Below, in pieces: positions 23,101 through 44,321 of a stretch of DNA of 46,001 bases. Below the pieces are notes generated by a model. It worked only from the letters and a program-made list of their open reading frames with translations, made no database searches and was not told the DNA's origin. Made by a program: the position numbers and the translations under genes. Origin of the DNA: Parasynechococcus marenigrum WH 8102 (GTDB taxonomy: Bacteria; Cyanobacteriota; Cyanobacteriia; PCC-6307; Cyanobiaceae); the NCBI RefSeq assembly GCF_000195975.1, contig NC_005070.1, forward strand, positions 911,000 through 957,000, written 5' to 3'. Each line of letters opens with the position of its first letter. Positions within the stretch are counted from its first letter, which is position 1.

Positions 23101-26100
23101 TATTCTGTTGATGGCGATTCTTCAGACTATATTAACACTGCTTCTTCTATTGTATTGAAACTAGATGATGCCCTGATGTATTCACATCAGGTGCGCGTTA
23201 GCTACGCTTCAACAACTATAGAGGATTCTTCTCAAACTTACGATCTTGCCACGTTTAGTAATTTCTCTATACAAAACCGTTCTAGTGTCTTCACTCTTGA
23301 ATCCCTTGCCTCGACCAATTCAGTTATTTACGAAGACCTTGGTTTTGATGGTACGCCAACAACAGCACAAATAATTTCTCTTGCTGCGGAAGGTACTGTT
23401 AATCCAGATTCAGTTGTTGTTGGTAATTACTATACCATTGAGTCTGTTGGTAGTACTGATTGGACTGCGATTGGTGCTTCCGCTAATGCTGCTGGTACCA
23501 CGTTTAAAGCCACGAATACTGGCACTGGCAATGGTACAGCTTCTACTAATTATTTAATTCTAGATTCTGAGATACTTGGCAAGTATTATGATGTTGAGAG
23601 CTCAGCTCTTTCGCTTTATAACGTCGTAGCTGACAATGGTACCTTTAAACGCAATGATGCTAATACAGGCTGGTTCTATCGACCTGTGGTTAACTATTCA
23701 GGTCAAGTAGTTGTTTCATTTGATGTTTTTGATGGTACTTCTTTTACCCCTGGTAGTGCCACGTTAGATGTTCAATCGATTAATGACATACCTGTCAGGA
23801 TTGCTGGTAATGTTTCAGGTATCATTATTCCTGAAGGGGCTTCAACCGATACGTCACCTCCAACGCTTGCTCATGCTTCTGTAAATGGTTCATCTGTTTT
23901 ACTCCACTTCTCTGAGGCTCTAGATACTTCTACGGTAGTCAACTCCAGTATGTTTGACATTAAAGTTGGCGGGAATGAGGTAACTTATACTGTTAATGGT
24001 AGTACTGCTGATTATTCCAAATCAAATACAACTCTGTCTCTTACACTTTCAAGTGCTGTTTCGGCTACCGATGTTGTAACCATTGATTTTCCCTCTTATA
24101 CTCGCATAACAAGTCTTGGTACAACGACGAACTGGACTAATCATGGTGCTGTCCAAACCGCAGCTGGCAATTTTGTTGTGGGTCGCGAATACATTATTAA
24201 CACAGCAGGTGATACTTCGTTTACGGGTATTGGGGCTACTAACAATAATGTTGGTACTGTGTTTATTGCAACTGGTGCCGGTAGTGGTTCAGGCAATGCA
24301 TTAGAGACAAACTTCGTAGCTACATCTTCGATAACTGGTGATGGTGTCTCTGTTGATAATGTGCTCAAGGACACTGCTTTCTCGGCAAATAAACTAGTTG
24401 CATTTAGTGGAAGTTCAATTTCTAATATTACTGGGACTGATACTACAGTTCCGGTTCTTACCAGTGCTTTACTTGCTCCTGATGGTAAGTCTGTCAAACT
24501 AGTCTTCTCAGAGCCTTTAGATACATCTGTTTCATTAAATAATTCTACCTTTAACGTCAAAATGTCTGCTGATGGTGTTAATTACTCCGCTCACTCATAT
24601 TCTATTGATGCAACCAGTGCTGCTTATTCTGATGGTGATTCAACTATCAGCTTAACCTTTGCCACCGCTGTCGACTATCAAGCCCTCCTTACCCTTGATT
24701 ACCAAGGCACCAACATAAAGGATACTTCTGGTAATGCCTTGGCCACAATCGCGACTGCTTCACCGATGTCTATAAAGAACAATGTTCGTGTTTCTTTGGG
24801 TCTATCTGCGCTTTCCTATCTACCTGGTCTTGGTGATGATGAATCTATCAATTCTTCCACTATTCAAACGCTTACTTACAAGATTACAGCTTTACCCTCT
24901 TCTTTAGTTGGCCAACTGCAGTTGATCGATGGTACTCCAGTAGTCCTTAATGACACCTATAGTATTGATCAGCTCAGGCAACTTCAATTTGAATCTTTCT
25001 CTGGTGCAAATGGTACTACTTCCTTTACTATTAATATAGCTGATTCCGCCGGTTCCTCTATTAATGAGGTGATTCCAATCGGTACGTCTTTTGTCAACGA
25101 CGGTCCAATCCAGACTGGCCCTGCTTTTGTATTTAGCGCTGTTCAAGAGGATAATACGTTAGATATTACAAAGGCTCAGTTGCTGACAGGTTATGTTGAT
25201 GAGGAGGGCAACCCAATGTTTGTTAATGGTTTGTCAGCCTCAAACGGCACACTTAGTCAATCTGGTGACACATGGACGTTCACTCCAATAGAGCATTTTG
25301 TCGGCACCGTTGACCTAATGTATGTTATTAATGACAGTAATGGTGGCGGAATACTTGCAACCAACTCTTTTCAAATTACAGAGGTTAATGATGCACCTGT
25401 TCGTGATGATGGTTCAAGCTTTAATACTTTAACAGTACTTGAAGATGGTCCAGTCTCCTCGATGAATCTTCCATCGACACTTTCGTACTCAACTGGTGGT
25501 GAGGGTCGTTCTACTGGTGAAACCTCTCAGTCCCTCACCTATACAGTTACTTCTTTACCTGTCACTGGCGGTGGTGCCTCTGCTGGCACTATATATAAAG
25601 ATAACGGTACATCTGTCGCTGCCGGTAGTTTTGTTAGTGGTACAAAGTATTATATTTCAGCTTCGGGTACTACTGATTTTACTCAAATCGGTGCTGCTAA
25701 TAACAATGTCGGTACTAGCTTTACAGCAACAGGAGCCGGTGCCGGCACTGGTGAAGCAGTAGCTATAACAACAGTTGACTTATCCAATCCTTCACTAACT
25801 CTTACCGAACTAAAAGGTCTTAAATTTCAACCTGCTGCAAATATAGTTGGTACTTTTACTCTGGGCTTCACTGTTTCTGATGATGGCCCTAATACCAACG
25901 ACGGAAATGTAAAGACCGATAAAAATAGTCTTACTCAATCTGTTGGGATTTCAATTCTTAATTTTAATGATACCCCTGTTTTACCAACCCCATCTATTGC
26001 TTTCACATCGAATGGAACAGAGGACACTGCTTTTACATTTACAGAAGCAGATTTTCTAGCTGGTGTGACAGACCCTGATCTTGATTCCAACGCTAATCCC

Positions 26101-29100
26101 ACCAATCCCTTTGGTGATGTGTTATCAATATCTAATCTTTCCGCTTCGAATGGTACATTAATTGGCCCCGTGAATGGGGTTTATACGTTCACACCGAGTG
26201 CTAACTTTAACAGTGATCTTGGTGGTGTTGTTACTTTTAATTATTTGATTAATGATGGCCAAGGTGGCTCCATCGCTAATACTATTACAAGGACTATTGA
26301 TCCCGGCAACGACTCCCCTGTTGCTACTTTTAATACTGCACAGTTTGCCTCTGAGAATGGAGGTACTCTTACAGGCCAGTTAACTGCTACCGATATTGAA
26401 CTTTCTCGAGGTGACAATGCTGGTAAAACCCTCACTTACACTCAGACGAATACTGTTGCTGGCTTTGCTCTCGCTGTTGATGGCTCCGGTTCATTTACAT
26501 TTGATACTGCTGATACTACCTATCGTTACTTAGCACTTAACGAAACACTTACGCTTACTATTAACTATCAGGTTACAGACGAGGTTCTTGGTACTAATTT
26601 TGGTAGTTTAACAGCTCAGGACCTCGCAAACACTAAAGGTTCTTTCACGATCACTCTGACTGGTTCGAATGACGATCCTTATGCAGTAGGCGGTGCCTTG
26701 GCTGCTCTTACGCCGGGAACGGAAGATACGACGTCTACCTTCACCATTGCAGACTTGACTCAAGGCTATGCTGATTATGATACCTCTGATGTTTTAACTG
26801 TTCAATCACCTACTGCCTATAAGGTTGTTGACGGTGTGACCACTGACGAGATTGTTGGCTCCTTTACTCCTAACCTTGTCAATAATATTCTGCAAAGCTA
26901 TACCTACCAGCCATCTGCCAATTTTACCGGTAATTTAGAAGTCAAATATGTTGTCTCTGATAGTAAGGGGCCCGGTATCGCAGGTTCGTCAACTCTTGTC
27001 ATCAACGCGGTGAATGACACGCCTGTACCGACGTTTGCCTTCAACCAGTCCGCATCGGAGGCTGGTGCTGTCGTGACTGGTCAATTAACTGCGGACGATA
27101 CTGAAATTACTACAGGCGAACAAGCAGCTACTTCCCTTACTTATTCATTAGTTGGAGATGCTATTGCAGGTCTCACCATTGCCGCCGATGGACAATTCAC
27201 CTTTGATCCTACGAATGCTGCGTATGAGTATTTGGCGAACGGTGAAGAGCAGGTAATTACGGTTAATTACCGAGTCACGGACCCTGGCAATTTGTTTGCT
27301 GATAAGTCATTTACTATTACTATTAATGGTACAAATGACAATGTTGTTGTTGATTTGAACGCAATCGCGACTCTTGCTGCAGCAACAGAAGATACTGCTT
27401 TCGTTGTCAGTATTGATCAGCTTTTACAGGGCTTCAGTGATGTAGATACCTCAGATGTTTTGGTCGTTCAGGGTCTGACCGCATTTAAGGCTAATGCTGC
27501 TGGCACTGCTCTCGATGAAGTTGCAGGTACTCTCACTCGTGTTGAGACCAATGGTGTGCTTACTGGATATCAATTCACGCCAGTCGCCAACTACAACGGT
27601 AATGTTGCACTGAAGTACACTGTTGTTGACGGCAATGGTTCTGATATCGCTGGCTCACTTGTTCTCAACGTGAATGCAGTTAATGATATTCCTGTCCCGT
27701 CCTTTGGTATCAATCAGGTTACATACGAGGCCGATACATTGGTTACCGGCCAATTAACTGCTGATGATATTGAGATTGGTACTGGTGAGCAACTTGCAAC
27801 ATCTCTGATTTATACGTTATCCGGAAATGCAATTCCTGGCTTTGCTATTGCCAACGATGGGGCTTTCACCTTTGATCCCACGAATCCTGCGTATGAGTAC
27901 TTGGCTGCTGGTGAAGAGCAGGTGATTACGGTCAATTACCGTGTAACTGATGCCGGCGGATTGTTTGCTGAAAAGAACTTTACCTTCACCGTTAAGGGTA
28001 CGAACGACGATCCTGTCGTTGACTTGGGTGCCATCGCGGCCCTTGCAGCTGCAACTGAGGATACGCCTTACACTGTGAGTGTTGATCAGCTTTTACAAGG
28101 CTTTAGTGATGTTGATACTTCAGATGTTTTGGTCGTACAAGGCCTCACGGCGTTTAAGGCCGATGCTGCTGGAAATGCACTTGATGACGGTGCTGGCACT
28201 ATTTCTCGCGTAGAGGTCAATGGTGTTCTTACTGGGTATCAATTTACTCCTCTTGATAATTACAATGGTAATGTAATACTTAAATATACCGTCGCTGATG
28301 GTAATGGCCCTGGAAGAGCTGGATCCTTGCCCCTTATTGTTAATGCTGTCAATGATCTGCCTGTTCCCACCTATGATACAAATTTGGTTAATACAGAAGG
28401 TAACGAATTAGTCACTGGCCAGTTAACCGCAGTTGACAACGAGATTATTACTGGCGAGCAACTTCCAACTTCACTGACTTATACACTGTCTGGCAATGCA
28501 ATACCGGGACTGACTATTGCTGCAGATGGGGCGTTTACCTTTAATCCTCAGGATGCTGCTTATGACTATTTGGCATTTGGTGAGGAGCAGATAATTAATG
28601 TTAACTATAGAGTAACTGATGCTGGAGCTTTGTTTGCTGAGAAGACCTTTACCATTACTGTTAAGGGTACAAATGATGATCCCGTTGTTGATGTTAACCA
28701 AACTGTAGCACTAGCTGCTGCCACCGAAGATACCGAGTACTTAATTACAACCGCTGATCTTCTCGCGGGTTATAGCGATGTTGATACAACAGATGTTTTG
28801 ACTGTTGAATCACTCGTTGTATACAAAGCTGATAATGCTGGACTTCCTACTACCGAGTTAGGAGGTTCCGTGACGCCTGTTGTTGTGAATGGTGTTACAA
28901 CTGGTTATAATCTTCTGCCTGCTGATGATTATTTTGGTGATGTTGTTGTCACCTATATTGTCTCGGATGGCAATGGGCCTGGAGTACCTGCTACCTCGAC
29001 TATTACTGTCAACCCTGTAGTTGACGTTCCTCGTGTAGGTAATCTAGGTGAAAAGGGATTGAATTTAGGTCAAACACCTGAGGATACTCCTACTACCTTC

Positions 29101-32100
29101 ACCACTGCTGATTTGTTAGCAGGCTTTACTGATCCCGATGGCTTCGAATTGACGATTAAGCCTGATTCTGTGACAAACGCCTATTCCACGATTACTTTGG
29201 AAGGTGATACCTATACCTTTACACCTAATCTAAATTTCTCCGGTTCGACTCAAATTGATTTTACAGTTGTCGATGCTGCTGGTAATGAGGTTCCATTTTC
29301 AAAATTTATCGATGTTATTGAAGTTAATGATCCGCCTTCGATCACTCTTGATCGCGATGCATTGGATTCCGATTATAAGTCTAAGACATATTTGATTCCG
29401 TTTGAGCAGATTTTCGCTGTTGTTCCAGCTAATCCAGTGGTTGAGCTTATTGATCCTGATTTATCTATTACAACTCAAGTCGTTGGTGATTCACTGAGTA
29501 TTGAAATTCCTGCTGCCTATACTGAGGACGTCTCATTTATGTTTGGTGATACCGTTGTTGATCCAAACTCTTTATTTACGTTAGACGTACTTAGACCTTT
29601 ACAGGTTTCTGACCGTAATGTTGTAGCTGGTTTTGAACGCTTCTTTGCCTTATCTGATTTTGGATTCGGTGATGTTGAAGGTTTGCCTTTACAGTCTGTT
29701 CTGATTCAGGTGCCTGATACATCTCTTGGTACTATTCGTGTTGGTTCGGGTAACTTTGACACCGACACTGAGAATGTGATTCAGCTCACCCCACTCGCTT
29801 CTAGTGATTTCAACCAATCAAATGTTTTTGAGGTTACACGGGAACAAATTGAGACCGGTAGTGTTTATTTTGTTGCCAATCCTTCTCCACTAAATGCTGG
29901 CAAGTCTGCTGATCTTGAATTCATAGTAAAAGATGAGAGTGGTGATCTGTCAACACTCCCAGGTCTGCTTAGAATTACTATACAAGAGGCACCAGAATCT
30001 GTCCAAGATTTTATTGCTAATTCAACTTACGAACCTATTTTCGATGCCGAGCTTGGACTTAATCGTTTTGACTCTGTTGACACCATAATCTCTTCTATAG
30101 GTATAACTCGTGACGAAGCCTTGTCTGTTATACGTTCTACTTTGCCTATTCGCACTGCGGCCAATAGCTTTGATGCCAGTGTAGAGACTCCTTTCAGTTA
30201 TGTAACCCAAAATGAGGTTGAATATCGGTGGGATATTGGAGCATTTGACATCTTTGAATATGATTTCACCAGTAACACGCAAACCCTGGTTCTCGACTTC
30301 GCTTCTTTAACAATTGATTCCGACCTATACCAACATTTTGCCGACCTCTATACCTATTCATTAGCTAATGATCTTGATAATGCTTATTTGGCTAGTAAAC
30401 TTGTTGAGTTAATTCCTGGTTCTAATGACCGGCTCAATAAGATTGAAGATGCATTTTCTCTTTCTAATTACGATGATATATATAGCTATTTGACCGCTTC
30501 TGGCAGGAACGGACCTGAGCTACTTGATATTACTACTGATAATACCCAGAAGCAGTTTGTTCGTTTGTACTCTGCTATTGCTTCTTCACCTATTCTTTCT
30601 AATACCTTTAATGAAGGTCGTGATCTACTTGTCCAGAGTGTTCTGGATCTTATTAATCCCCCTTCTCCATTACCCAACCGACTTGTTGATAATCTGAACG
30701 ATCTTTTTACTGAGAAGACTAGTTCTTTAGCCTCTTCTTTTGTTCTGCCCTCTGGTATTGCATTGTCTCCTGAAGGTTTAGATAGATTAAACCGAGTTAC
30801 AAATTTGGTAGGTACGGGTGGTTCTTCTGACTTGTTAGCAGCCTCTGAATTTTCTACTAATACCCCTCAGCTATTAAATACTCTTAGTGACCAAAATATT
30901 ATCTCTGATACAGGGTCTCTTTTGAATAATTTTGGGCAGCCTGTATTGAGTGACGGTGAACCGCTTATTATCTCTGACTACCAATCATTGGTTAGTTCTT
31001 TTGTTGATACAAATCTCACTACATTTTCCGACGACTTCCTTGAGAATGATTCTATCTCGGGCGAATTAGCGCGTAACATTGTCCTCAATGAGATTTCTGA
31101 ACGAGTTGTTCAGGCTGCTGATTCATCTACGGTACCGGAAGTTATTAGTTCTACTCTAAATAATCTACTTGCTGCTGCCTTGCAGTTAGATCCTGTTGCT
31201 GAGGACGCTAAAACTGAGTCGAATCGTCTTCTTAAGATGGCTCTGAGTGTTGATTCTTTGGTTGAGCAGCGTCCCCTTTATGAAGTAGACGAGGCCACAG
31301 GTCAGCCCAAAACTGTTTTTGACCCGAGATCGAATACTGATGTGTTTGTTGTTAATGAGGAAAATCAGGCCTTTTATAATGCTGCACTTGAGCAGCAAGA
31401 TGTTTTACAGGCAGATTATGTTGGTCTTACCTTAGAGCAGTGGAAGGATATTGATAACCAACCTAATTCTGCTAAAGTTAAAGCTGACCGTATTAACGCT
31501 GTTAAGATAGGAATCTCTTATGCTGATTATCTTAATTTTGCGAACTTAAATCCTCTTGACTCTGAGGTTTGGTCTATTTATCCTTTTGTTGGTTACGTTG
31601 AGGCAGGTACATTTGATTCTGATGACTTCTTAGTTGTTGATAATCTCTTTGTTGACCCACAGGCAGCTCTCAATAATCTTATCTCAAGTGGGATTAACAA
31701 AGGTGTCAGCTTTGATGACTTCTCAAGTCTTCTCTTTAATCAGCCAATTTACACACCAAGTACAGTATCGTCTGATTCTGGTGCTGAGATTACACGTGCA
31801 GATGCTATTACATATGCCTCTACTGATCCATCCAGTGCTCTTTATATTGCCGCAATGGACTCTAATTTCCAGGAGGGTAATGTTATTAAGGCATATAAGA
31901 CTACCAACCCCAACCCTTACAAATTTACTATTGAGGATTTTGATGACGCTAATTTACTTACCGATGGCCTTCAAGTTAGTTATCTTGTAAACTATACATA
32001 TGGTGATTTAGCTGTCGGTGATTCTGGTTATACCTTTAATGTTGCTTCTGGTTATTCACCAGATCTTGTTGGTCATGACTTAGATGAGTTTAATTTGGCC

Positions 32101-34515: not shown

Positions 34516-35054
34516 ATTTTAGAATAGCGGCATATATTAGTTTCTTCCTTTATCTTGTATCATCTGCTTTAATTTTAGCTCATTTAGCTTATTTTCTTCT
34601 TTTTCTCTCTTTCGTCGCTAGTTACTTGTTGTTTTATGCCTTTTCAAGGTCTTTTATTTGTTCTGGCCTAATATTTGTTTTATACCGATTCGGCATGTTT
34701 TGTTATTTTAAATCCTAAACTTACCCGCGACGTTCTAATCCTTTGATATCTGTACATTGTATGATAGGCTGATGTTTGTTTTTTTCCTGTGCAACCACAG
34801 CACTATTAACTATTTTTGAATAATTCTTATGATGTTACGGTCACTATATGGAGACTGCGATAATACCTTTTTAACGTCAAGTGAAGAGGCTTAGTCTTGT
34901 TACAACTCCCCACAGTAACCATACCAAGTGCTTTGATTTTATTCCCAAAATTATTGATTACCTACTTAGTATTTTAATCTGCCTGACAATACTATATATT
35001 TTTTCTTGATTTGTTCTAGTTCTCATTCGTTCTTCTTGTTTTTGTGTATTATTT

Positions 35055-35537
35055 TCAACAGTGGTCTTTCAGTTCTCTCCTGATCTTTGGCACGGCGTCC
35101 GGCTGTCCTTGCATCAAGAAAGCTTCTCTTTCTATATCAAATTTCTCGCTTTCATAATTTCGATATAGGATTGACTCTATTGCTATTTTTACCGCTTCAT
35201 CAACATTTGGCATCCATCCAATTGGCTGTAATGATCCTGTCCTACAGGTTTGCGCTGCATGAACAGCTTCATGTAAAAATGTTGTCCTAAAGATTCTCAT
35301 TTGTTGTGTTATAGGTGCAATCCATATAACTTTCTTTTTTGTATTTATCAATCCGTAGGTACCTTGCATCGGCGGTTTCTCAAATTTGATTTTAAATCCA
35401 GCCTCTATCAATGACAATCTAAGTTCATTCAAGTCTTTTACTAGATCTATTTCTTCTGCCCTAGATGGATTTACTGTAGTTAGAGCCAAAAGCGATGCAA
35501 TTATGGCTGTCGAAATGTGTCTGTTAATATTTATCAT
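35055..35537 (-). CDS. Small secreted HExxH-motif protein (putative Zn-metallopeptidase-like), last gene of the operon
   Basis: 160-aa ORF. The N-terminus is signal-peptide-like (MININRHISTAIIASLLALTTVNPSRAEE). HEAVH at aa 89-93 was verified on the DNA (35259-35273, reverse complement CATGAAGCTGTTCAT). Its start overlaps the upstream stop by 4 nt (ATGA). Confidence 0.65.
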   Translation of the reverse strand: MININRHISTAIIASLLALTTVNPSRAEEIDLVKDLNELRLSLIEAGFKIKFEKPPMQGTYGLINTKKKVIWIAPITQQMRIFRTTFLHEAVHAAQTCRTGSLQPIGWMPNVDEAVKIAIESILYRNYESEKFDIEREAFLMQGQPDAVPKIRRELKDHC

Positions 35538-36208
35538 TGAATTGTCATGCTACGGCCTGAATTACCCCAGAAATTGATAGGGTCATCTTTGTACCAGGGT
35601 TCCCAACCAATAGGAACTTTATTTTTTCTGGCAGATCGTTTTATCTCTCTGTACATCTTATACCCTGATGCTTCTAGTACTATGAAAACGGCTTGATTAT
35701 TTGTGTTTAGGTTTTTCATTAGTGTGTCTAGCCAATCTCTCAATTCTTCACTCTCAGAGTCAATCGTAGGTTCTTGTGACCTTAGGATTTGTCCTTTCTC
35801 ATGATTGATTGTCATTGATATACCATTAATTTGCTCTTCCTTTTCCCATCCGTTTAATTTGCTATTGCAGATTTCTAGCTCTGGAGATAACAAGTTTTCA
35901 CAACTTCTTACCTCTTTGGCCCTCTCGCGGTCTAGTTCAGCCATTCTATTTATTGCAGGCTGTAAATCCCACACTCCTTCTTTTGCTGCTTGTAAAGTCC
36001 AGAATTGTTTCTTTGTTTCTTTTTTCATTGGCGCTTGTATATTGACTGCACTTGTTGCAGCGAAGACACCAGCAAGTGAGCTAACTAGCACAAGTACCCC
36101 AACAACATTGCATAAGAGATCTAATAGGCTGTCTGAGCTGTCAGCTAACCCAGATGAACTTTTTTTGCCCTTTTTACGGAGAAGGATTTGTTTCTGTTCG
36201 GTATTCAT
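35534..36208 (-). CDS. ExbD/TolR-like single-pass membrane protein, long paralog (224 aa), retains the TM aspartate
   Basis: A basic N-terminus (KKGKKSSS) precedes SLLDLLCNVVGVLVLVSSLAGVF, which resembles the ExbD/TolR TPFIDVMLVLL motif with Asp30 (codon 36119-36121 = gat). The C-terminal VFIVLEASGYKMYREIKRSARKNKVPIGWEP parallels the ExbD periplasmic domain and the neighbouring paralog. There are 4-nt overlaps with both neighbouring genes. Confidence 0.5.
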   Translation of the reverse strand: MNTEQKQILLRKKGKKSSSGLADSSDSLLDLLCNVVGVLVLVSSLAGVFAATSAVNIQAPMKKETKKQFWTLQAAKEGVWDLQPAINRMAELDRERAKEVRSCENLLSPELEICNSKLNGWEKEEQINGISMTINHEKGQILRSQEPTIDSESEELRDWLDTLMKNLNTNNQAVFIVLEASGYKMYREIKRSARKNKVPIGWEPWYKDDPINFWGNSGRSMTIQ

Positions 36209-36654
36209 TTGGGACTCTCCGGAAACTTAACTTTAAGTTCACTTTCGATTGGTTCGTAGCCATATTCTAACTTATTGAACTCTGCTTTCGATCTTAGTTT
36301 TTCAAAACAAAGATATCCTTCAGGTCGTACACCTATGATTATGTATTGGGGTGTTTCATCAGTTCCTAGGCTTTTTATGATGACATCTACTTTCTCATCG
36401 TTTATATTCATATCCATACTTTCGTTTCGGATTAACATGTTCATATTTCCCTCCTTATTGCATACAATATAATTTCCATTTTTACCTTTACCTTCTCCTC
36501 CGGCAGGCAGGAGTTTCACCACATTGACTCCTGGTTTAATTTGCAAAGCGAATATTACGAGTGTCAATGTCTGGACACCAATTGTTGCAGTCATTATGTT
36601 TAGGAACGATGACAGATCCATACCTGCGTCGCCCTTTTTTCTGCGTCTTCCCAT
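36205..36654 (-). CDS. ExbD/TolR-like single-pass membrane protein, short paralog (149 aa), with Asn at the TM acidic position
   Basis: MGRRRKKGDAGMDLSSFLNIMTATIGVQTLTLVIFAL has a basic N-terminus and one TM segment. FLNIM aligns by eye to the ExbD FIDVM motif. YIIIGVRPEGYLCFEKLRSKAEFNKLEYGYEP matches the paralog pattern. The start overlaps the MotA-like stop (TAATG). Confidence 0.55.
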   Translation of the reverse strand: MGRRRKKGDAGMDLSSFLNIMTATIGVQTLTLVIFALQIKPGVNVVKLLPAGGEGKGKNGNYIVCNKEGNMNMLIRNESMDMNINDEKVDVIIKSLGTDETPQYIIIGVRPEGYLCFEKLRSKAEFNKLEYGYEPIESELKVKFPESPK

Positions 36655-37967
36655 TATCTTGACCTAATTTTGTCCATAAGTATACCTATGCCAAATCCAT
36701 TCCTTTCTCTTCTCATGTTCTTATTCAGCAGGTCAATGGATTCTTTCAATTCAATCAACGATCGTAATTGAGCTTTTTGATCTATACCGATCCTATTTTC
36801 AGCTAACAAGTCGCTTAGTTCACCGGCAAGCAAATTCATTGCATTTCTTATGATGTCAGTCTGTTCCTGTAAGCTTAGGCGTGCTTCACTCACTCCTTCT
36901 ACAGAATCTCTGACAATTGTTGTAAGTGGTGTTAGTTTTTCTATCGTTGCTTCCGTTAATTTTTCTGCATAAACCTGGGCTGGTTCTACCAGTACTGATG
37001 GATCTGGTAGATGTTTTTCGAACGCATCGCTTATCAACCCTGCAATGTCGTCCCCAAAAATCTCTTTTGGTGTGGGTTTCTCTGGAGTTTTCTCTGATGT
37101 TCCACCGCCAGCACCACCTCCAGTCCCTTCTCCAGACTGTGACGCTATTTCACCGCTACCCAGAGGACTCAGTGATAAGACTCCATCTCTCACAACTCCG
37201 TCAATTTGGCTCAGTAATCTATCTTCAATCTTTTCACAAAGTGTGAGTGGGAATGCCAAAAATACTGATATTACCAGTGCTAGGAATGTTGTGTCGAACG
37301 CTGTACCAAGTCCCCCAGTAACTTGAACCAAGCCATCTTTTAGACCATCAACGTTGTCTGCGTTACTAAGAACGGCATCAAATGAACCAACAGCTTGGGA
37401 CATTCCAATAACAGTTCCTATAAATCCAGTCAGTGGAATTGCCCATAATAATAGCTTTGGAAAACTAAAACTACTACTCATGGATAATTCGTAAAGATCA
37501 ACATCTCCATCGGCAGCTCGTTCCAGCTGAAACGCTGATCCTGTTGATTCCCATACATCCAATAGGTGTAGAAGTCGTTTACCGACGAGAGATCCAGAAT
37601 TCTCAGATTTAAGTTTTATAGCCTCTAAATCACCTTGCCTTACTAAACTTGGTATTTCTAGATCAAATGCTAAATAATCTTTCTGTGCTTTTTGCAAAAT
37701 GCGTAATTTGTTAAATAAGAACCACCCCAGCATTCCGCCCAATATGAGTGTTGCAACTTGGGTTGGTCCACGCTGATGAAAAAGGGCATGCCCTGGCATT
37801 GCGTCTGGAAAGTTCACCGCCCAGATCAAAAAGCCAGCAATCCCCCCGGTGATGATCCACCGACCGAATTTTGGATCAAGGTCATTGCCAAGGCCCAAGC
37901 TTACCGAAGGTACAGGTACGCTTCTGCTTCTTGCATCTGCTTCGAGTTGTCCTGTGGAGGTTGTCAC
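36654..37967 (-). CDS. MotA/TolQ/ExbB-family ion-channel protein (437 aa, 4 predicted TM segments) with a C-terminal extension of about 170 aa
   Basis: The family core is recognisable. LLLWAIPLTGFIGTVIGMSQAVGSF aligns with TolQ APFIGLFGTVWGIMHAF. VTGGLGTAFDTTFLALVISVFLAFPL aligns with TolQ [23 protein letters not shown]. Two N-terminal TM segments (WIITGGIAGFLIWAV and VATLILGGMLGWFLF) are separated from TM3 by a loop of about 90 aa, a MotA-like topology. The tail has a Gly-rich linker and then helical, Glu/Leu-rich sequence. Confidence 0.75.
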   Translation of the reverse strand: MTTSTGQLEADARSRSVPVPSVSLGLGNDLDPKFGRWIITGGIAGFLIWAVNFPDAMPGHALFHQRGPTQVATLILGGMLGWFLFNKLRILQKAQKDYLAFDLEIPSLVRQGDLEAIKLKSENSGSLVGKRLLHLLDVWESTGSAFQLERAADGDVDLYELSMSSSFSFPKLLLWAIPLTGFIGTVIGMSQAVGSFDAVLSNADNVDGLKDGLVQVTGGLGTAFDTTFLALVISVFLAFPLTLCEKIEDRLLSQIDGVVRDGVLSLSPLGSGEIASQSGEGTGGGAGGGTSEKTPEKPTPKEIFGDDIAGLISDAFEKHLPDPSVLVEPAQVYAEKLTEATIEKLTPLTTIVRDSVEGVSEARLSLQEQTDIIRNAMNLLAGELSDLLAENRIGIDQKAQLRSLIELKESIDLLNKNMRRERNGFGIGILMDKIRSR

Positions 37968-38001
37968 TGTTCAGTTGATGTAATGTTGATTTGCTGATAG
38001 T

Positions 38002-38325
38002 TTACTTTTTTTCTGTATTCCATTCTTGCCATTCTACTTCTAACTCTCCAGCATCATTAGCTCCTGGTGCTGGAATCTTTGTTAGCAGTTCGTCTGGTAG
38101 TCCGAGACGTTGAAAGACCGTTTGTCTTTGTACCGCCGGCATTGCGGAAAACGACCTCACCACATCTCTTACTTTGTACTCTGAGTAGACCATTTTCATT
38201 AATTCATCTTGATCCTCATCTGGAAGATTTTTAAACCAATTGACAAACTTTTCGGTTTTAGTTTTAAGGTCCATTTTCGGAGGGTTCAGCGGGGGCATCC
38301 CTCCAATTATAGCCCCTAATGTCAA
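38002..38325 (-). CDS. Hypothetical small protein (107 aa) between the HlyD and MotA-like genes
   Basis: The ORF fits the operon spacing (18 nt after the HlyD stop, 34 nt before the next start) and shares the island composition. I recognise no motif. Confidence 0.5.
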   Translation of the reverse strand: MTLGAIIGGMPPLNPPKMDLKTKTEKFVNWFKNLPDEDQDELMKMVYSEYKVRDVVRSFSAMPAVQRQTVFQRLGLPDELLTKIPAPGANDAGELEVEWQEWNTEKK

Positions 38326-38343
38326 GCAGTCCCCAGCTCTAGT

Positions 38344-39504
38344 TTACTTACTTGATTTTATTCTAGTAAGCGAATCTAAGGCCTTTTGTACCGCATCTGT
38401 TAGTAATGATATGACCCGCTTATCTCTAAGAATGAGATTCACTTGTACACTTTGGCCCGCACTGATTTCGTATTTTTCTCCATCTTTTTCAAGATAGTCC
38501 TTGTCAATCTTCACGTATGCCGGGAACCTAGGCATTGGATTTTGTTGATCTGGTTCTAGTGGAAGTGTCCCCACTGACTTCAAGGACCCTGTAATTGATC
38601 CAAATTGTGTATACGGAAAAGCATCGACCCTTATTTGGGCTTTCATTCCAGGCTTCATAAAACCAACATCTTGATTAGTAATGTATATTTTTGCCTCGAT
38701 TTCCCCTCCTGGGACAACTTTTACGAGTGTCTCTCCCGCCGAAGCCGCATACCCTGCGCTTGATGGAATCATCCCATAGACAATTCCTGCAATCGGTGCG
38801 CTCAATTTTTCTTTTGTTATCGTATCCTGAACTTCAACCATTTGCCGTTCTAGTTCTGATATTTCACGCAGGGATTCTTGTTTTAGTTTGTTGAGCTGTG
38901 CTTCTACTTCCTCCAAGTCCGCTTTTACAACTTGTGCCTCTGACTCCAGTTGTTCTACTTTATTCCTTTGCCTTAGCAGCTCTGTTAGTTGCATTGCGCC
39001 AATCTCTGCTAAGGGTATGATATTTGTATATATACTTGATTCTGTATTTAACGATCTATTTATACCATTTAATCGCTCGACTACTCCTCTCTTTCTAGCC
39101 TCGACAGCTCTCGACTCTTCTTCAAATCTTTTTCTTTCGAGCTTTATTTGTGTTTCTAATGTTTCTTTTCTCTTTCGAGATACGTCTGCGTCAAATCTCA
39201 ATAAGGTGTCTCCTGCATTAACTTTTTGCCCCTCCTTAGCTACAATATCCTTAATTACTCCCCCGAATGGTGCTTTGACTGGTCTTTCAGCACCCAGCGG
39301 TTGTAATTCTCCAGGAGCCAGTACTACTTCGTCAATTTTTGCAAATACAGCAAATATAAATCCGAGTGATGCTGTCGAAATAATGGTCCATGCCAGAGCC
39401 TTGCTCCAAAGAGGTGCCGGCCTTAGTTGTACTTCTTGATGATTGAGTGGCCTTACAGCCAGACTTGAGTTGGTTTTTGGGCTATTTGAATTTGAGGTAG
39501 TCAT
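38344..39504 (-). CDS. HlyD-family periplasmic adaptor (membrane fusion protein) of a type I secretion system
   Basis: 386 aa with an N-terminal TM segment (ALAWTIISTASLGFIFAVFA). Lipoyl-like hairpin motifs are present (VKAPFGGVIKDIVAKEGQKVNAGDTLLRFD and LSAPIAGIVYGMIPSSAGYAASAGETLVKVVP). A long central coiled coil is present (ERKRFEEESRAVEARK...QLESEAQVVKADLEEVEAQLNKLKQESL). The gene starts 2 nt after the ABC gene stop. Confidence 0.9.
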   Translation of the reverse strand: MTTSNSNSPKTNSSLAVRPLNHQEVQLRPAPLWSKALAWTIISTASLGFIFAVFAKIDEVVLAPGELQPLGAERPVKAPFGGVIKDIVAKEGQKVNAGDTLLRFDADVSRKRKETLETQIKLERKRFEEESRAVEARKRGVVERLNGINRSLNTESSIYTNIIPLAEIGAMQLTELLRQRNKVEQLESEAQVVKADLEEVEAQLNKLKQESLREISELERQMVEVQDTITKEKLSAPIAGIVYGMIPSSAGYAASAGETLVKVVPGGEIEAKIYITNQDVGFMKPGMKAQIRVDAFPYTQFGSITGSLKSVGTLPLEPDQQNPMPRFPAYVKIDKDYLEKDGEKYEISAGQSVQVNLILRDKRVISLLTDAVQKALDSLTRIKSSK

Positions 39505-39506
39505 TT

Positions 39507-42500
39507 TTAGGATTCTTGTTGGTGGTAAAGTGTTGCATAGCGGCCATCCAATGCCATAAGTTCTTCATGAGTACCTTTTTCAACTAATGCCCCTTGATCC
39601 ATTACAAGAATAACATCAGCAAATTTGAGAGATGCCAATCTATGAGTTATAAAGAAAACGGTGCTATCCTTATACAATTCTATCAGATTTGCCGTTAATC
39701 TTCTTTCAGTGTCTACATCAAGAGCACTTGTTGCTTCATCTAGTACTAGTAATCTTGGTCTCCTGATTATCATTCTTGCTATTGCCATTCTTTGTCTTTG
39801 TCCTCCACTCATTCCAGCTCCTCTTTCCCCTACGGAGCTGTTGTAGCCGGCGGGCATAGCTTGAATAAATTCGTGTGCACAGGCAATTTGTGCTGCTACT
39901 ACAACTTCCTCAAATGATGCATCAGGCCTTGCTAACGCAATATTTGACATTACTGACCCGTCGAACAACAGACTATCTTGTGGTACTACACCGATTTGCG
40001 ATCTTAAGGAGTAGAGATCTACTTTGCTAATGTCATTATCGTCTATGAGAATTTGGCCATCGTTTATTTCGTATAACCTTGTTAGCATTTTCAACATTGT
40101 GCTTTTGCCAGAGCCACTACTTCCCACGACCCCAATGAATGAACCTTGTTCAATTTTGAAATTAATGTTTGATAGATTAAGTGCTCCTTCCTTCCCAAAT
40201 CTAAAGTTAACACCTTTATATTCCACTGTTCCTACTATGGGAGGTATTGGTGGCTTTTGTTCTCCAGTAATTTCTAATTCTTGGGGATGATCTACGATAT
40301 CAGCCAGTCTCTCTAACGATAATGCAGTTTCTTGAAAATTTTGCCATAAGTTTGCCATCCTAAGCAAAGGACTTGTCACGTAACTTGCTAGGATTCTGAA
40401 GGCAATTAATTGTCCAAGTGTTAGTTCACCTTTTAATACTAGTGAGGCTCCAATCCACAAAACAATAAGTCCTGAAAGCTGTTCAAGAAACTGACTTGCT
40501 GATCCGGCCGCTGTGCTTGTTACGGTGTTCCTAAAACCCGATGTTATCTGACCTCCGTAGAGCTGTTGCCATCGCCACCGACTATGAATTTCCATACTCT
40601 GGCCCTTAATGGTTTCCATTCCTCCAACGGTCTCAACTAAGTGACTTTGTACCCGAGCGTTAGCTTCAGCCTGTTCTCTAAGTTGCTTTCGTATGATTGG
40701 TGCTGATACTAATGTCAACCCCACAAATAATGGAACTACTACTAATGACCATACTGTTAATTGGACTGAGTAAAGTAACATAACAGCAATGTAGATGATT
40801 GCAAAAATTGCATCTAACACTACCGTTAGCGCTGTTCCGGTCAAAAACTGTCTTATTTTTTGTAGTTCATTGATTCTGCTGCTTACTTCACCGACTGGTC
40901 GATCTGAAAAGTAACCTAATGGAAGCCTAAGTAGGTGATCGATGATTGATGAACCTAATGAGATATCGATTCGATTTGTAGTATCTGCAAATAGGTATGT
41001 CCTTAGCGAAGATAATACCGCTTGAGCTAGACTCATGCCTATTAACAATGTTCCAAGCACATTAAGGCTGCTAACATTTCCTTGGCTGATCACAGCATCT
41101 ATTATTTGTTGTATCAAAAGTGGATTTAATAATCCAAATAGTTGTACAAAAAAACTGGCGACTAGAACCTGAATAAGGACTGCTTTATGTTCTTTTAAAG
41201 CTGGTATAAACCATCCCAACCCAAATCGTTTCTTAGGTGATACTTTGCTTCTTTGAATCGTTAAAACCTGTATTGTTCCATCATCGTTTCTAGCACCTAA
41301 GTCTTTTGTTGAAACTTTTATTTGTCCTTCTTCGGGGCAACTGATCAGTGCTTGGCCAACCATGTCCGCTGACCATAATATTATTGGTTTATTCTTACGT
41401 ATTGCTATTGCAGGTAATTGTAAACGCCCTATCTGGTTTTCCGTTACATTTATTTGTGTTGCTCTAAGGCCAATTAAGTCAGCAGTAGCAGCAAGTTGAA
41501 TCAAACCAATTGATCTTTCTCCCGTTTCTGATAATTCATTTCTCATCAATTGATCTTCAATTATTCTCTGTATTACATCTTTTCTAAAAGGTATATCAAA
41601 GTATCTCGCAAGCATTCTTAATGCAGCCATTGGAATCCCTACAGGTCCAGACCCATCCAACTGTGGAAAGCTCCCGTCATCGCCAAGCTTTCCATACCAA
41701 TCTTCAAGAGCCTCCTGCTGTTTTTCTACTGCAACTATTGCTGTGCTGCTTTCTTGCCAGTCAGGTTCTACGACTTCAGCCTCAATTTGGAGAGGTGCAG
41801 CCTCGCTAGAGTCTGGGCTTACGACTAATACTTGTGGGACATTGATTGGAGGTGTAGCTCCACTTTTAGAGATTAATCTTGCAGGAACTTTCCCTTGAAC
41901 TATTAACTTCATTGGTCCAAGTAATTCTTCACCTGGCTTGCATCCAGAAATGTTTGAACTGCTTACCAACCACGGCCCCCATTTAGAATCAACAAAGTGT
42001 TCACCTGGAGGTAGTAATAATATTTTGTGATCTCCTTTTGATTCTGCTATTTTGTTGCTTGCCCAGTCTTTTATCTCGTTTTTCGTGTTATTTAGAGGCG
42101 AATTTGTTAATATACTAACTCCATACAATTCTTCAATGTTAGGTTCAAGAAATTCATTTGCAAATTCTGCGTTTTCCGCTATTACTTGCAGAAATCCAGT
42201 TTGAGGAAGCAGCCATAGCAAGCTTGGCTGCGATGCGGCTAATGCATAACCAGTTACCCCCCTGAGGATTCCAATATGTCCAGCTTGATCTCCTGGAGCT
42301 AATCTATATAGTGTGAAAGGTTCTTCTCTTTCATCTAATGCAAGCAATCTCATCTGACCCTCTGCTATGAGGGCTATCCCTGGAGGAAGGTCTGAAAAAT
42401 CATATAATTTTTGACCCGGACGTAATCGTAATGGTTGAATTGTTTCTGCTAGTTTTGCCTTTTGCTCTGTTGATAGTTTTGAGAAAGGCGCCCAGGAGTT

Positions 42501-42530
42501 GATTAGGCGCAATGCCTGTCTTAATTGCAT
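39507..42530 (-). CDS. Type I secretion ABC transporter (HlyB-like) with an N-terminal cyclic-nucleotide-binding domain and a catalytically inactive C39-like domain
   Basis: 1007 aa. The N-terminus is cNMP-binding-like (LRLRPGQKLYDFSDLPPGIALIAEGQMRLLAL...LAPGDQAGHIGIL). The C39-like region (GIPMAALRMLARYFDIPF...LPAIAIRKNKPIILW) lacks the Cys and His of active C39 peptidases. A six-helix TMD follows. The NBD has Walker A GSSGSGKST, signature MSGGQRQR and Walker B LLVLDEATSALD. Confidence 0.93.
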   Translation of the reverse strand: MQLRQALRLINSWAPFSKLSTEQKAKLAETIQPLRLRPGQKLYDFSDLPPGIALIAEGQMRLLALDEREEPFTLYRLAPGDQAGHIGILRGVTGYALAASQPSLLWLLPQTGFLQVIAENAEFANEFLEPNIEELYGVSILTNSPLNNTKNEIKDWASNKIAESKGDHKILLLPPGEHFVDSKWGPWLVSSSNISGCKPGEELLGPMKLIVQGKVPARLISKSGATPPINVPQVLVVSPDSSEAAPLQIEAEVVEPDWQESSTAIVAVEKQQEALEDWYGKLGDDGSFPQLDGSGPVGIPMAALRMLARYFDIPFRKDVIQRIIEDQLMRNELSETGERSIGLIQLAATADLIGLRATQINVTENQIGRLQLPAIAIRKNKPIILWSADMVGQALISCPEEGQIKVSTKDLGARNDDGTIQVLTIQRSKVSPKKRFGLGWFIPALKEHKAVLIQVLVASFFVQLFGLLNPLLIQQIIDAVISQGNVSSLNVLGTLLIGMSLAQAVLSSLRTYLFADTTNRIDISLGSSIIDHLLRLPLGYFSDRPVGEVSSRINELQKIRQFLTGTALTVVLDAIFAIIYIAVMLLYSVQLTVWSLVVVPLFVGLTLVSAPIIRKQLREQAEANARVQSHLVETVGGMETIKGQSMEIHSRWRWQQLYGGQITSGFRNTVTSTAAGSASQFLEQLSGLIVLWIGASLVLKGELTLGQLIAFRILASYVTSPLLRMANLWQNFQETALSLERLADIVDHPQELEITGEQKPPIPPIVGTVEYKGVNFRFGKEGALNLSNINFKIEQGSFIGVVGSSGSGKSTMLKMLTRLYEINDGQILIDDNDISKVDLYSLRSQIGVVPQDSLLFDGSVMSNIALARPDASFEEVVVAAQIACAHEFIQAMPAGYNSSVGERGAGMSGGQRQRMAIARMIIRRPRLLVLDEATSALDVDTERRLTANLIELYKDSTVFFITHRLASLKFADVILVMDQGALVEKGTHEELMALDGRYATLYHQQES

Positions 42531-42648
42531 TTATCAAATTTGACCTTTCAACGTTAGCACATAGGTATATTACTTAGCAGTAATTTTTTTGTTTGTCAGT
42601 ACAATCTAACGCAGAGGCTCGTCTGTCTTCTTTGCTACTGAATTATTT

Positions 42649-43374
42649 TCACATCGTCTTCTGGGACACTATATCTCTTGACTTCTTCAGTTCTTCTGCT
42701 AGGAGTTCCTCGCCCAGTTCCGACAATATTTTCAACCTCTCTTCTTTGTTGAAGACTGCCGGCCAGAGTTTTTCACTTATAACGATTCCCCATCCGTTTT
42801 CAATTTTTATTGGCGGCCATACTTGTTTGGGTTGACTAATCCTTAGCAATTCAGCAAGTGCATCAGGTAACTCTTGTAGTTTAACTGGTCCAACCCTACC
42901 GATTTTTAATCCCTGAGGAGGATTTGTCGAGAGTAGAATAGCATCATCAACGGAGCATTCTCCCTCTTTGATGCGAACAAATACTTCGCCAGCAAACGCT
43001 TCGTCATCTATCCATATCATTGAGTAGCTAACTTTGTCTAACTTTGCCTTTTCTTTTAGGAATTTTGTTGCAGCTTGGTTTTTGAACTTCTTTTCGCAAA
43101 CTTTAATCCATCTATAATATCTTGTTGCCCTTGTTAGTAACGATTCCTTGTCTACGTTCTCGCTCCTCATCCATTTCGCAAGTTCTTCTTGGGTATAGAT
43201 GTTCATGCTACTTAAATATACTTGTATTACCTCTTCCTCCGATGCGTCTAGTGTTATTTCCGTCTCGATCAATTCATCAAGTACTAGTTCTCGTTTTATG
43301 GAGCCTTCGATGCCCCATCTTTTCAGATCTTCAGGATTTATAGCTTTTGTGCTCACTTGGTGCTTTGCCGACAC
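42649..43374 (-). CDS. PpiC/parvulin-like (rotamase-fold) protein, probably catalytically degenerate; first gene of the operon
   Basis: 241 aa. The C-terminal half aligns by eye to E. coli PpiC. YSMIWIDDEAFAGEVFVRIKEGE..LSTNPPQGLKIGRVGPV..LPDALAELL...PIKIENGWGIVISEKL compares with [47 protein letters not shown]...PLHTQFGYHIIKVL. Both conserved His positions are replaced (M/W and G). Confidence 0.5.
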   Translation of the reverse strand: MSAKHQVSTKAINPEDLKRWGIEGSIKRELVLDELIETEITLDASEEEVIQVYLSSMNIYTQEELAKWMRSENVDKESLLTRATRYYRWIKVCEKKFKNQAATKFLKEKAKLDKVSYSMIWIDDEAFAGEVFVRIKEGECSVDDAILLSTNPPQGLKIGRVGPVKLQELPDALAELLRISQPKQVWPPIKIENGWGIVISEKLWPAVFNKEERLKILSELGEELLAEELKKSRDIVSQKTM

Positions 43375-44321
43375 TTGACGTATTTTAATTATCCTAGCAA
43401 ATAGGGTGTTGATTTCATTTGTTTATTTCTCTATTCACCTTTTGCTTGGGTTTGTTCACTTCTTTTTTGTTTCCGTCCTGTTCTGTTAGAGGAACTTTAT
43501 TTTTTGCACTGTATGAGCGTGTTTTTTAGTTTTTTATCTCTTTTGGTATTGGCGCCTGACTAATAAACCTGATTTATTAACTCTTTTTTGTATTGATTGT
43601 TTTTTCTTAGTCTTTTTCCCGACCTTTTCTTCACTATCTAGATAAAGTACCTTATCGTTTGGTTTTCTCTTTTTCCCCTGCCTTTTTGAAATTTCTTGTA
43701 GTTTCTTTTGGTTTCGCAGCTGACTTTCTTTTTGCCGCAATAAATTTTCCTCTTCGGTTCTTGCATGTGTGTAAATATTTTGCAGTTTTTCTTTTCATTT
43801 CTGTATCTCTTGTTTCCTTGATATGCGTTTATTTGCTATTTATTGCTCTTTCTATTGTGGTTGCAGGTCTATTATTCCAAGGATTTTGTGCTGTTTTTTG
43901 TCGTGTATTGATGTTGCTCTGTTTTGTCTTTTTTCTTGAGTGCAGTTTCTGCGACATGCTCTATGAGGTTCTGTTTCTTGTTTGTCTGTGATTGTCCTGG
44001 TCTTGATCCCTTCTATTTGTTTCTCGTTTCTTTCGTTAATGTCTCCAAGGTATGATTTAAGTTTACTCTTGTTTTAGTGTTTCCTTTTTGGTTTCTACTT
44101 AATTGATTCTTTCACCTCCCTGTGAATGTATCTTGCGTCGTTCGTAGAACGTTTGATTGACTTTTCGATCGCTTTATTTTTGTCTGCCTAAGTTTTTGGG
44201 TGCTTATAGGCTGAAGGCTTTTCGGTGATGTCTAATTCCTTCCTTTCTTGAGTCATGGTAATTCTATTGTATCGCTTTGATTCCCAGTCGCTGATTTATT
44301 TTGGATCGGTTGGTTTCAACT

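Follow-up and report, generated by a model that had tools for sequence, protein, structure and literature searches.

A conserved picocyanobacterial gene cluster that places a predicted type I secretion pair and a TolQR/ExbBD-like motor module beside swmB in Parasynechococcus marenigrum WH 8102

In Pseudomonas the giant adhesin of the LapA/LapBCE system, a substrate of type I secretion, is retained at the cell surface via its N-terminus and released by LapG, a periplasmic protease encoded nearby. The closest known analogue of the locus described here is Salmonella pathogenicity island 4 (SPI-4; siiABCDEF), which comprises a type I secretion system (T1SS; SiiCDF), the 595-kDa adhesin SiiE and the pair SiiAB. 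SiiE-dependent adhesion requires the proton channel made up of SiiA and SiiB, and the substitution D13N in SiiA blocks proton flux as well as SiiE-dependent invasion, the use made of the energy being unknown (bioRxiv 10.1101/641415); the pair is listed among the 5:2 motors (PMC12204202). In Flavobacterium an ion motor, GldLM, is tied to the type IX secretion system of a giant surface protein, exporting and moving the SprB adhesin and giving non-flagellar motility (PMC8986121). The swimming of Synechococcus without flagella has been a puzzle since 1985, and reviews list both its motor and its energy source as unknown (PMC7004002). This report examines a stretch of 46,001 nucleotides from P. marenigrum WH 8102 (the window; NC_005070.1, positions 911,000 to 957,000) in which eight minus-strand genes, designated g1 to g8 in the order of transcription, converge on the plus-strand gene swmB. 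Their coordinates are collected in Table 1.

The evidence favours, with a probability of about 0.6, the interpretation that these genes belong to a conserved picocyanobacterial island in which a T1SS dedicated to giant surface proteins of the SwmB type is linked permanently with an ion motor of the TolQR/ExbBD kind. Relatives of g5 at 49–98% identity are all picocyanobacterial (marine Synechococcus, Vulcanococcus, Cyanobium and freshwater Synechococcus UW140). In the five loci from genomes or long contigs all eight genes occur in the same order and converge on a SwmB-like gene, the last 250–500 residues of whose product match the C-terminus of SwmB at 31–72% identity. Every one of the 28 metagenome loci with a g5 identity of at least 49% keeps the gene order and the T1SS genes up to the limits of its contig, and a convergent SwmB-like gene follows in all 17 that have room beyond g8. 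Counted over the related picocyanobacterial loci long enough to judge (5 genome and 17 metagenome loci), the eight genes are accompanied by a SwmB-like partner in 22/22, a co-occurrence that the initial annotation of the window, made from the sequence alone, had proposed to look for. That annotation had also named, as a finding that would count against it, an operon widespread and syntenic in genomes lacking swmB-like genes and motility. Half of this holds: the cluster is widespread and syntenic in Cyanobium and Vulcanococcus, freshwater organisms not known to swim, but always with a SwmB-like partner.

By their family matches the products of g2 and g3 are a HlyB-type ABC exporter and its HlyD adaptor, as had been proposed from the letters. 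In Pfam, g2 matches ABC_membrane (E 2.6e-50), ABC_tran (E 2.9e-32) and Peptidase_C39 (E 0.0036), and it reaches 700 bits (E 2.7e-210) with TIGR01846, the HlyB type I secretion model with a curated cut-off of 726; g3 matches HlyD_3 (E 1.8e-18) and TIGR01843 (E 2.9e-46; 158 bits, curated cut-off 209). The domains of g2 are arranged as a cNMP-binding-like N-terminus, a C39-like domain, the membrane domain and the ATPase, and visual inspection suggests that the Cys and His which are catalytic in C39 peptidases have been replaced, as in the substrate-binding domains of HlyB-type exporters. Residues 1–120 (window 42200–42530) score 26.1 bits with cNMP_binding against a Pfam cut-off of 27.5; judged by eye, the phosphate-binding cassette of this domain is missing its usual Glu and Arg, so that the domain perhaps does not bind cyclic nucleotides. 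No product of the eight genes matched a TolC-like outer-membrane factor in Pfam or NCBIfam, and since such channels are frequently encoded elsewhere, this absence leaves the assignment to a T1SS standing.

The motor module is represented by g5, g6 and g7. The g5 protein is identical to CAE07472.1/WP_011127822.1, named MotA/TolQ/ExbB proton channel family protein in RefSeq, and scores 29.3 bits with the Pfam family MotA_ExbB (PF01618; cut-off 22.9). Its AlphaFold2 model has a mean pLDDT of 61 (about 70 in the membrane core), and 47 of its 48 best Foldseek matches are TolQ, ExbB, PomA, ZorA or MotA chains, led by TolQ (E 2.7e-3; TM-score 0.57–0.62 on the target) and including the ZorA entry PDB 8qyh. 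When g5 is aligned onto TolQ with hhalign, P178/T185 fall on P138/T145, T227 on T178 and P240 on P187, so that the equivalents of TolQ T145, T178 and P187, channel-lining positions of the family, are conserved. Four helices are followed by a cytoplasmic tail of ~190 aa consisting of a Gly-rich linker and a helix of ~100 residues. The family membership first suggested for this 437-aa protein is borne out by the Pfam score together with the fold matches.

Both smaller proteins of the trio are single-pass membrane proteins. The C-terminal, periplasmic domain of g6 is modelled with a pLDDT of ~83 and finds TolR of Escherichia coli as its top Foldseek match (5by4; E 5.9e-3, TM-score 0.60), followed by ExbD (8p9r/8vgc; TM-score 0.61–0.66); the fold thus upholds the ExbD/TolR-like label proposed for this 149-aa protein, for which Pfam, PADLOC and PDB profile searches gave no match at the sequence level. 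Asn19 of g6, invariant in 32/32 sequences, aligns with the essential membrane Asp of TolR (D23) and ExbD (D25). The 224-aa g7 protein, which had been left unnamed, has Asp30 within its helix (LLDLL), invariant in 10/10 aligned sequences with distant relatives included. In the periplasm there follow a linker containing Cys and, at the C-terminus, a TolR/ExbD-like domain that shares homology with its counterpart in g6 (hhalign probability 90%, E 1.6e-6). Nothing was found for g7 in Pfam or PADLOC; it is a second TolR/ExbD-like paralogue and the carrier of the invariant membrane Asp. Alignment of the g6 and g7 profiles with E. coli TolR/ExbD by hhalign was not significant, and the usable alignment of both proteins with TolR/ExbD is the one made with MAFFT including distant relatives. 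Sequence-profile searches of PDB chains with g5, g6 and g7 returned no TolQ, ExbB, TolR or ExbD, which were reached by fold comparison only.

These features specify the kind of motor. The initial annotation spoke of a stator-like module, and genes of the MotA/TolQ/ExbB type are present as it held; the trio does not, however, correspond to a flagellar stator. That candidate was rejected on the lack of an OmpA-like peptidoglycan-binding domain in the B subunits (no OmpA-family Pfam matches); moreover, the periplasmic domain of g6 matches TolR/ExbD and not MotB, and TolQ and ExbB outrank PomA and MotA for g5. The module is predicted to be a motor of the TolQR/ExbBD type with two B-type subunits. 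With TolQ-TolR and ExbB-ExbD it shares the best fold matches of g5 and g6, the channel Thr and Pro residues and, in g7, the membrane Asp. It differs from them in the absence of a TolA or TonB partner, Pal, TolB and a TonB-dependent receptor from the cluster, in the four helices and ~190-aa tail of g5, in the presence of two B paralogues and in the linkage to a secretion system.

In SPI-4 as in the WH8102 cluster, a T1SS for a giant repetitive surface protein is encoded with a MotA/ExbB-family protein and a single-pass partner carrying a membrane Asp, which is essential in SiiA; the association of a MotA-like/MotB-like pair with a T1SS and a giant adhesin is thus common to SPI-4 and to the present loci, where it recurs in 22/22. 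SiiA, however, has a MotB/OmpA-like peptidoglycan-binding domain whereas g6 and g7 have TolR/ExbD-like ones, and no SiiA chain appeared in the PDB profile search results for g6 and g7. The WH8102 cluster further differs in having a pair of B-type paralogues of which one lacks the Asp, in the long cytoplasmic tail of its A subunit, in the lack of an outer-membrane channel gene, in three extra genes (coding for the parvulin-like, 90-aa and HExxH proteins) and in the position of the substrate gene, convergent here and inside the operon in SPI-4. Given the TolR-like partners, the two B paralogues, the tailed A subunit and the three further genes, the WH8102 system is likely to be a variant assembled independently of SiiAB. 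GldLM and the type IX system differ more, in the secretion system itself, in an unrelated architecture of the motor subunits and in serving surface gliding, not swimming. Compared with the LapA system, g8 encodes an HExxH protein instead of a LapG-type Cys protease, the cluster has no LapD, and neither a retention module nor a cleavage site was recognized in SwmB.

The partner proteins have conserved termini and vary widely in length, from ~1,500 aa in a freshwater metagenome-assembled genome (MAG) to 10,791 aa in WH8102. SwmB itself matches SWM_repeat (E 5e-34) and, weakly, at its N-terminus DUF4347 (E 0.0014) in Pfam; a motif scan found zero GGxGxD RTX motifs. Its C-terminal module of ~230 aa (window 33800–34512), common to the convergent genes of related loci, is preceded by an acidic run of VLD-type repeats and a Gly/Asp/Ser-rich linker, opens with a helix that is rich in Gly and of moderate hydrophobicity (NLLDALTLGGGILYALYAP, Kyte-Doolittle mean 1.17) and terminates in MASLVELSVALSWKD; its appearance is not that of an RTX-type signal. 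Across the partners this module follows the pattern NLLDALxLGxG..., QxWLxxPS... and, at the extreme end, QAxMAxxxELSxAL, and the partners also share an N-terminal region (DUF4347-like with an EEIGHW motif). Within the SwmB-like N-termini the motif LIEEIGHWLDESHG...GDEGDIFA is conserved (SwmB residues ~320–355, window 3100–3200, and the L009 substrate) and resembles an HExxH site in which Glu takes the place of the first His. In the freshwater Synechococcus UW140 MAG (L009:11113-19044) two tandem SwmB-like genes converge on the cluster, coding for 1,506 aa and, up to the contig end, at least 1,136 aa, the conserved C-terminal module being present in both; the arrangement in L043 and L048 may be similar. 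Inside swmB (window 3679–12926 and 15059–19263) pattern matches recur at a spacing of exactly 1,065 nt, and at spacings of 381 nt and multiples of 381 nt, reflecting near-identical tandem repeat units of ~355 and ~127 codons.

For the accessory genes the earlier labels parvulin-like (g1) and HExxH (g8) receive weak but consistent support across orthologues. Rotamase_2 is matched by 6/6 orthologues of g1 (best E 5.7e-5, below the cut-off), the window protein scores 16.6 bits against a rotamase cut-off of 21.7, and its best PDB profile matches are a PpiC-type isomerase and SurA (E 0.056–0.23); without a signal peptide, g1 would be a divergent, cytoplasmic parvulin-like protein. g8 has a signal peptide and, in orthologue alignments, an invariant HEAVHAAQxC...EREAF...C, and DUF6782, a putative metallopeptidase family, is weakly matched by 5/7 orthologues (best E 3.7e-4, below the curated cut-off). 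A sequence-profile search of PDB chains returned no relative of g8; its two invariant Cys are consistent with a periplasmic location, and it may be regarded as a putative periplasmic zinc metallopeptidase. In alignments g4 is a small, conserved, soluble, cytoplasmic protein of ~90 aa for which the PDB profile search gave no relative and no convincing relative was found. Very weak MgtE_N matches occur in 5/9 of its orthologues (window 38002–38274; best E 0.047) and were not used; MgtE_N is related to the C-terminal region of FliG, and the match, if real, would give the motor a rotor-like partner.

On the favoured interpretation of a SwmB-type secretion system joined to an ion motor, the ABC exporter and HlyD protein would export SwmB by recognizing its conserved ~230-aa C-terminal module. 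A g5 pentamer would surround a dimer that includes g7 and may be a g6:g7 heterodimer with only one ion-binding Asp, and would convert H+ or Na+ flow into rotation or pulling. In line with what has been proposed for Salmonella SiiAB, this work might act on the secretion complex, or on the giant protein while it is still engaged there, in such a way that the motor would control retention, tension, display or release of the giant protein, translocation itself being powered by ATP and not by the motor. g8 may process or release the giant protein in the periplasm, and g1 and g4 would act on the cytoplasmic side. The conserved stop/start overlaps of g5–g8 across loci speak for this scheme. Several points weigh against it: both structure models are modest (pLDDT 61 and 68) with Foldseek E-values of only ~1e-2 to 1e-3; g6 is without the canonical Asp; g2 and g3 both score just below the NCBIfam cut-offs for type I secretion; SwmB, having no RTX repeats, is not a classical T1SS substrate; the spacers of 118, ~69 and 34 nt would permit separate transcripts; and the trio exists without any T1SS in other cyanobacteria, which implies that it can work independently.

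The occurrence of the trio on its own was followed through an exhaustive g5 profile search, which gave 80 cluster representatives at E at most 1e-30 and 1,410 at E at most 1e-10. Relatives outside the picocyanobacterial clade are long-tailed proteins of 410–780 aa, many of them ending in PRRVxLVE. In the six contexts examined the A gene is followed by overlapping genes of ~150 aa and 206–256 aa whose products are homologous to g6 (E 1e-37 to 1e-39) and g7 (E 1e-47 to 1e-63), and no ABC, HlyD, g1, g4 or g8 homologue was present; the T1SS genes are likewise absent from the 52 metagenome loci with a g5 identity of at most 48%. These relatives outline a predicted cyanobacteria-wide family composed of one long-tailed A subunit and two TolR-like subunits. 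At the canonical position the g6-type protein has Asp in most stand-alone trios (L016, L017, L020, L022), Ser in L019 and in both plasmid-borne trios (Table 1) and Asn in the entire T1SS-linked clade, and the g7-type protein always has Asp. As the trio occurs alone elsewhere, the picocyanobacterial cluster looks like the capture of a pre-existing trio by a T1SS/giant-protein island, with g1, g4 and g8 apparently added in the fused form only. The A subunits of the two plasmid trios have ZorA as their best PADLOC match, tail included (E 1.7e-8 and 3.7e-7), and these trios may be an undescribed Zorya-like system with TolR-like B subunits. In another locus (L022:4913-9123) the trio and two transposase-related genes are followed by a 990-aa protein with a Tubulin_2 domain and a LysM/SBP protein, and in L017 a LysM protein lies upstream of the trio; the LysM neighbours are hints of a link to the cell wall.

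Within the window, the ORF list agrees with the initial annotation in placing all eight ORFs on the minus strand, and the cluster converges on swmB, as it described, across a 539-nt spacer between the two stop codons, in which a simple scan found no terminator-like hairpin. The ORFs are conserved at 31–98% amino-acid identity in more than 35 loci, which identifies them as real genes. On remeasurement in transcription order the junctions are 118 nt (g1 to ABC), 2 nt (ABC to HlyD), 18 nt (HlyD to the 107-aa ORF), 34 nt (107-aa ORF to the MotA-like gene), -1 (g5-g6, TAATG), -4 (g6-g7, ATGA) and -4 (g7-g8, ATGA); the gaps and overlaps given earlier were correct, the 118-nt spacer being missing from them. 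The TTG start of the 107-aa ORF had been picked mechanically, and nine orthologues begin at the position of Met18 (ATG 38274), so that g4 probably starts at this internal ATG, is ~90 aa long and is separated from the HlyD gene by 69 nt. The GTG start of g5 is supported by orthologues that begin in the same alignment column, with conservation from residue 23. The pattern of spacing is shared with nine other loci, with gaps of about zero at ABC-HlyD and throughout g5-g6-g7-g8, and over related loci the remaining junctions measure 39–134 nt (g1-ABC), 45–131 nt (HlyD-g4) and 33–40 nt (g4-g5). From the measured gaps and the corrected g4 start, junctions of the coupling type are confined to ABC-HlyD and g5-g6-g7-g8: of the translationally coupled eight-gene operon first described, these two tight groups stand, but the spacers of 118, ~69 and 34 nt elsewhere make coupling over all eight genes an overstatement.

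Table 1. Features of the swmB locus in the window (positions counted from the first letter of the window) and trios on two cyanobacterial plasmids (positions within loci L023 and L024).
Feature	Coordinates	Strand	Description
swmB (SYNW0953)	2140..34515	+	10,791 aa; giant surface protein and presumed substrate; from the ORF list, size and name per PMC4949707
Convergent spacer	34516..35054		AT-rich, swmB stop to g8 stop, 539 nt
g8	35055..35537	-	160 aa; protein with signal peptide and HExxH
g7	35534..36208	-	224 aa; second TolR/ExbD-like protein, proposed ion-binding axle subunit B2
g6	36205..36654	-	149 aa; TolR/ExbD-fold protein, B1
g5 (CAE07472.1 / WP_011127822.1)	36654..37967	-	437 aa; TolQ/ExbB/MotA-family A subunit
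g4	38002..38274	-	~90 aa; ORF extends to TTG at 38325, orthologues begin at ATG 38274
g3	38344..39504	-	386 aa; HlyD-family membrane-fusion (periplasmic adaptor) protein
g2 (SYNW0959)	39507..42530	-	1007 aa; HlyB-type ABC exporter; locus tag per PMC3091678
g1-g2 spacer	42531..42648		118 nt
g1	42649..43374	-	241 aa, GTG start uncertain; putative cytoplasmic, divergent parvulin-like protein
Trio, Microcystis aeruginosa NIES-2481 plasmid p1	L023:7998-10598		Immediately follows a type III-B Cmr module and a CARF-HEPN gene; viperin lies close by
Trio, Anabaena cylindrica PCC 7122 pANACY.03	L024:7989-10568		Adjoins methylase, SLATT and nucleotidyltransferase, HKD/Snf2 helicase and DUF559 protein

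Other functions for the trio have to be weighed against this background. It might itself be the engine of Synechococcus swimming, with ion flow through g5/g7 producing torque or a travelling force; this is considered rather unlikely, and so, to the same degree, is the path that the force would take, from the T1SS conduit or the envelope to the surface-tethered 1.1-MDa SwmB and on to the SwmA S-layer, comparable to GldLM/type IX/SprB. The motor genes are fixed beside swmB, which is required for swimming (PMC3342319, PMC7004002), the reviews cited above offer no motor for this motility, swmA mutants still rotate, indicating that torque is generated below the S-layer (PMC3034196), and both known non-flagellar surface motilities, AglRQS and GldLM, are powered by 5:2 motors (PMC12204202, PMC8986121). 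The invariant Asp of g7 would suit such an engine as well. Willey et al. are said to have shown in 1987 that Synechococcus swimming depends on the sodium-motive force, and transposon studies in WH8102 reportedly yielded motility hits in swmB and in multicomponent transporters. However, the entire cluster with its partner is kept in freshwater Cyanobium, Vulcanococcus and Synechococcus UW140, where swimming is not known and partner proteins are as short as ~1,500 aa; SiiAB, the best-studied analogue, serves adhesion rather than motility; no rotor-like or track-like partner was identified; and the swmA cluster sits elsewhere in the genome. A role limited to the export or anchoring of SwmB is more likely. 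It is improbable, by a lower estimate than for swimming, that the trio serves, like Zorya, as an envelope sensor or as a defence module which merely shares a variable island with swmB and would sense envelope perturbation such as phage attack and signal via the g5 tail, independently of secretion. ZorA, too, is an A subunit of the MotA family whose long helical tail lies in the cytoplasm (PMC12422006; PDB 8qyh), homologous trios lie in defence islands on the Microcystis and Anabaena plasmids with A subunits that best match ZorA, the island is induced by mitomycin C (PMC3744912), and its G+C content is low in every host. In PADLOC g5 matches ZorA1 at E 0.0011, but the ZorA matches are weak only (E 0.0011 and 0.014), all scores are far below family level and there is no ZorB match; the domains of g6 and g7 are TolR/ExbD-like and not ZorB-like peptidoglycan-binding; and Zorya needs effectors (ZorC/D, E or F/G), whereas no nuclease or other effector gene is present in the cluster. 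In addition, g7 and g8 overlap, and the order of g1–g8 and the partner is invariant in the T1SS-linked clade down to ~50% g5 identity, which argues against chance co-location in an island. Least probable by far is a Ton-like energizer of outer-membrane uptake unrelated to SwmB, like exbB-exbD-exbD of Synechocystis (sll0477-0479). This operon, compared by its layout, likewise has an A gene followed by two ExbD-like genes (PMC8634477, PMC4195498), and the folds are TolQ/ExbB-like and TolR/ExbD-like; the strict synteny with the T1SS and the partner gene speaks against it, and it was rejected as neither the eight products nor the neighbours in related loci include a TonB-like protein or TonB-dependent receptor.

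Independently of these functional readings, it is possible, if somewhat doubtful, that the eight genes are transcribed as two or three units (g1; g2-g3; g4-g8 or g5-g8) with promoters of their own and are not produced stoichiometrically, as the recurrence of the 118-, ~69- and 34-nt non-coding spacers in all orthologous loci would allow. The g1-g2 spacer could hold an internal promoter; it is present in all these loci, but an alignment of the spacers revealed no conserved sequence. A LexA site has been predicted upstream of SYNW0959 (PMC3091678), yet the LexA consensus has no match in this spacer at 3 or fewer mismatches, and matches over the window as a whole are at chance level. Promoter-like hexamers do occur within the cluster, though no more commonly than in shuffled sequence, and a simple scan for terminator-like sites found none on its coding (minus) strand. 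The invariant gene order and the co-induction of the genes as a block (PMC3744912) also argue against separate units.

The initial annotation was largely correct in what it observed and right in kind in its interpretation; corrections were needed as to which type of motor this is, how far the coupling extends and how specific the locus is to swimming. With SiiAB as a precedent and a family name for g5 already in RefSeq, the finding does not open a category of its own. In the searchable literature, which does not cover the original transposon studies, the genes of the cluster are tied neither to TolQ/ExbB/stator proteins nor to swimming, and there the architecture, the strict association with proteins of the SwmB type, the division of Asp and Asn between the two TolR-like paralogues and the connection with stand-alone, partly defence-associated trios are undescribed. 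The locus places a complete candidate for an ion-driven motor right next to SwmB, one of two proteins with a known requirement in swimming, and offers in Asp30 of g7 an obvious single residue to mutate, reducing a forty-year-old question to a few decisive mutants. If the trio did drive swimming, this would be the third conversion of a 5:2 motor to propulsion, after flagella and the gliding of Bacteroidetes, and no earlier one was based on a T1SS; even if the motor merely aids the display of SwmB, it would represent a second, independently assembled T1SS with its own ion-motive-force motor.

Some further observations concern the island as a whole. In a microarray study most genes of SYNW0951-0961, with the exception of swmB, were induced by mitomycin C, and the authors noted that almost no functional information existed on them (PMC3744912). 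The cluster and swmB have a G+C content of 41–43% against 54–64% in the flanking malQ and rodZ-like genes, and in every host the island lies 6–13 G+C points under the adjacent malQ, whether the G+C content of the host is 51% or 71%; it looks like a long-resident island whose composition is incompletely equilibrated. Proximity of the cluster and its partner gene (window 1001–44300) to malQ is seen in WH8102 as well as in four related loci (L001, L002, L004, L008). Between malQ and g1 there is a non-coding stretch of ~950 nt (window 43375–44321) with 36% G+C and an extreme excess of A on the strand that encodes the cluster (AT skew -0.5), of similar length in L004 and of only 48 nt in Vulcanococcus; Rfam gave no RNA family anywhere in the window, this stretch included. 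In the low-G+C region upstream of swmB and divergent from it, a minus-strand ORF of 148 aa (window 1651–2097) codes for a protein with a coiled-coil C-terminus.

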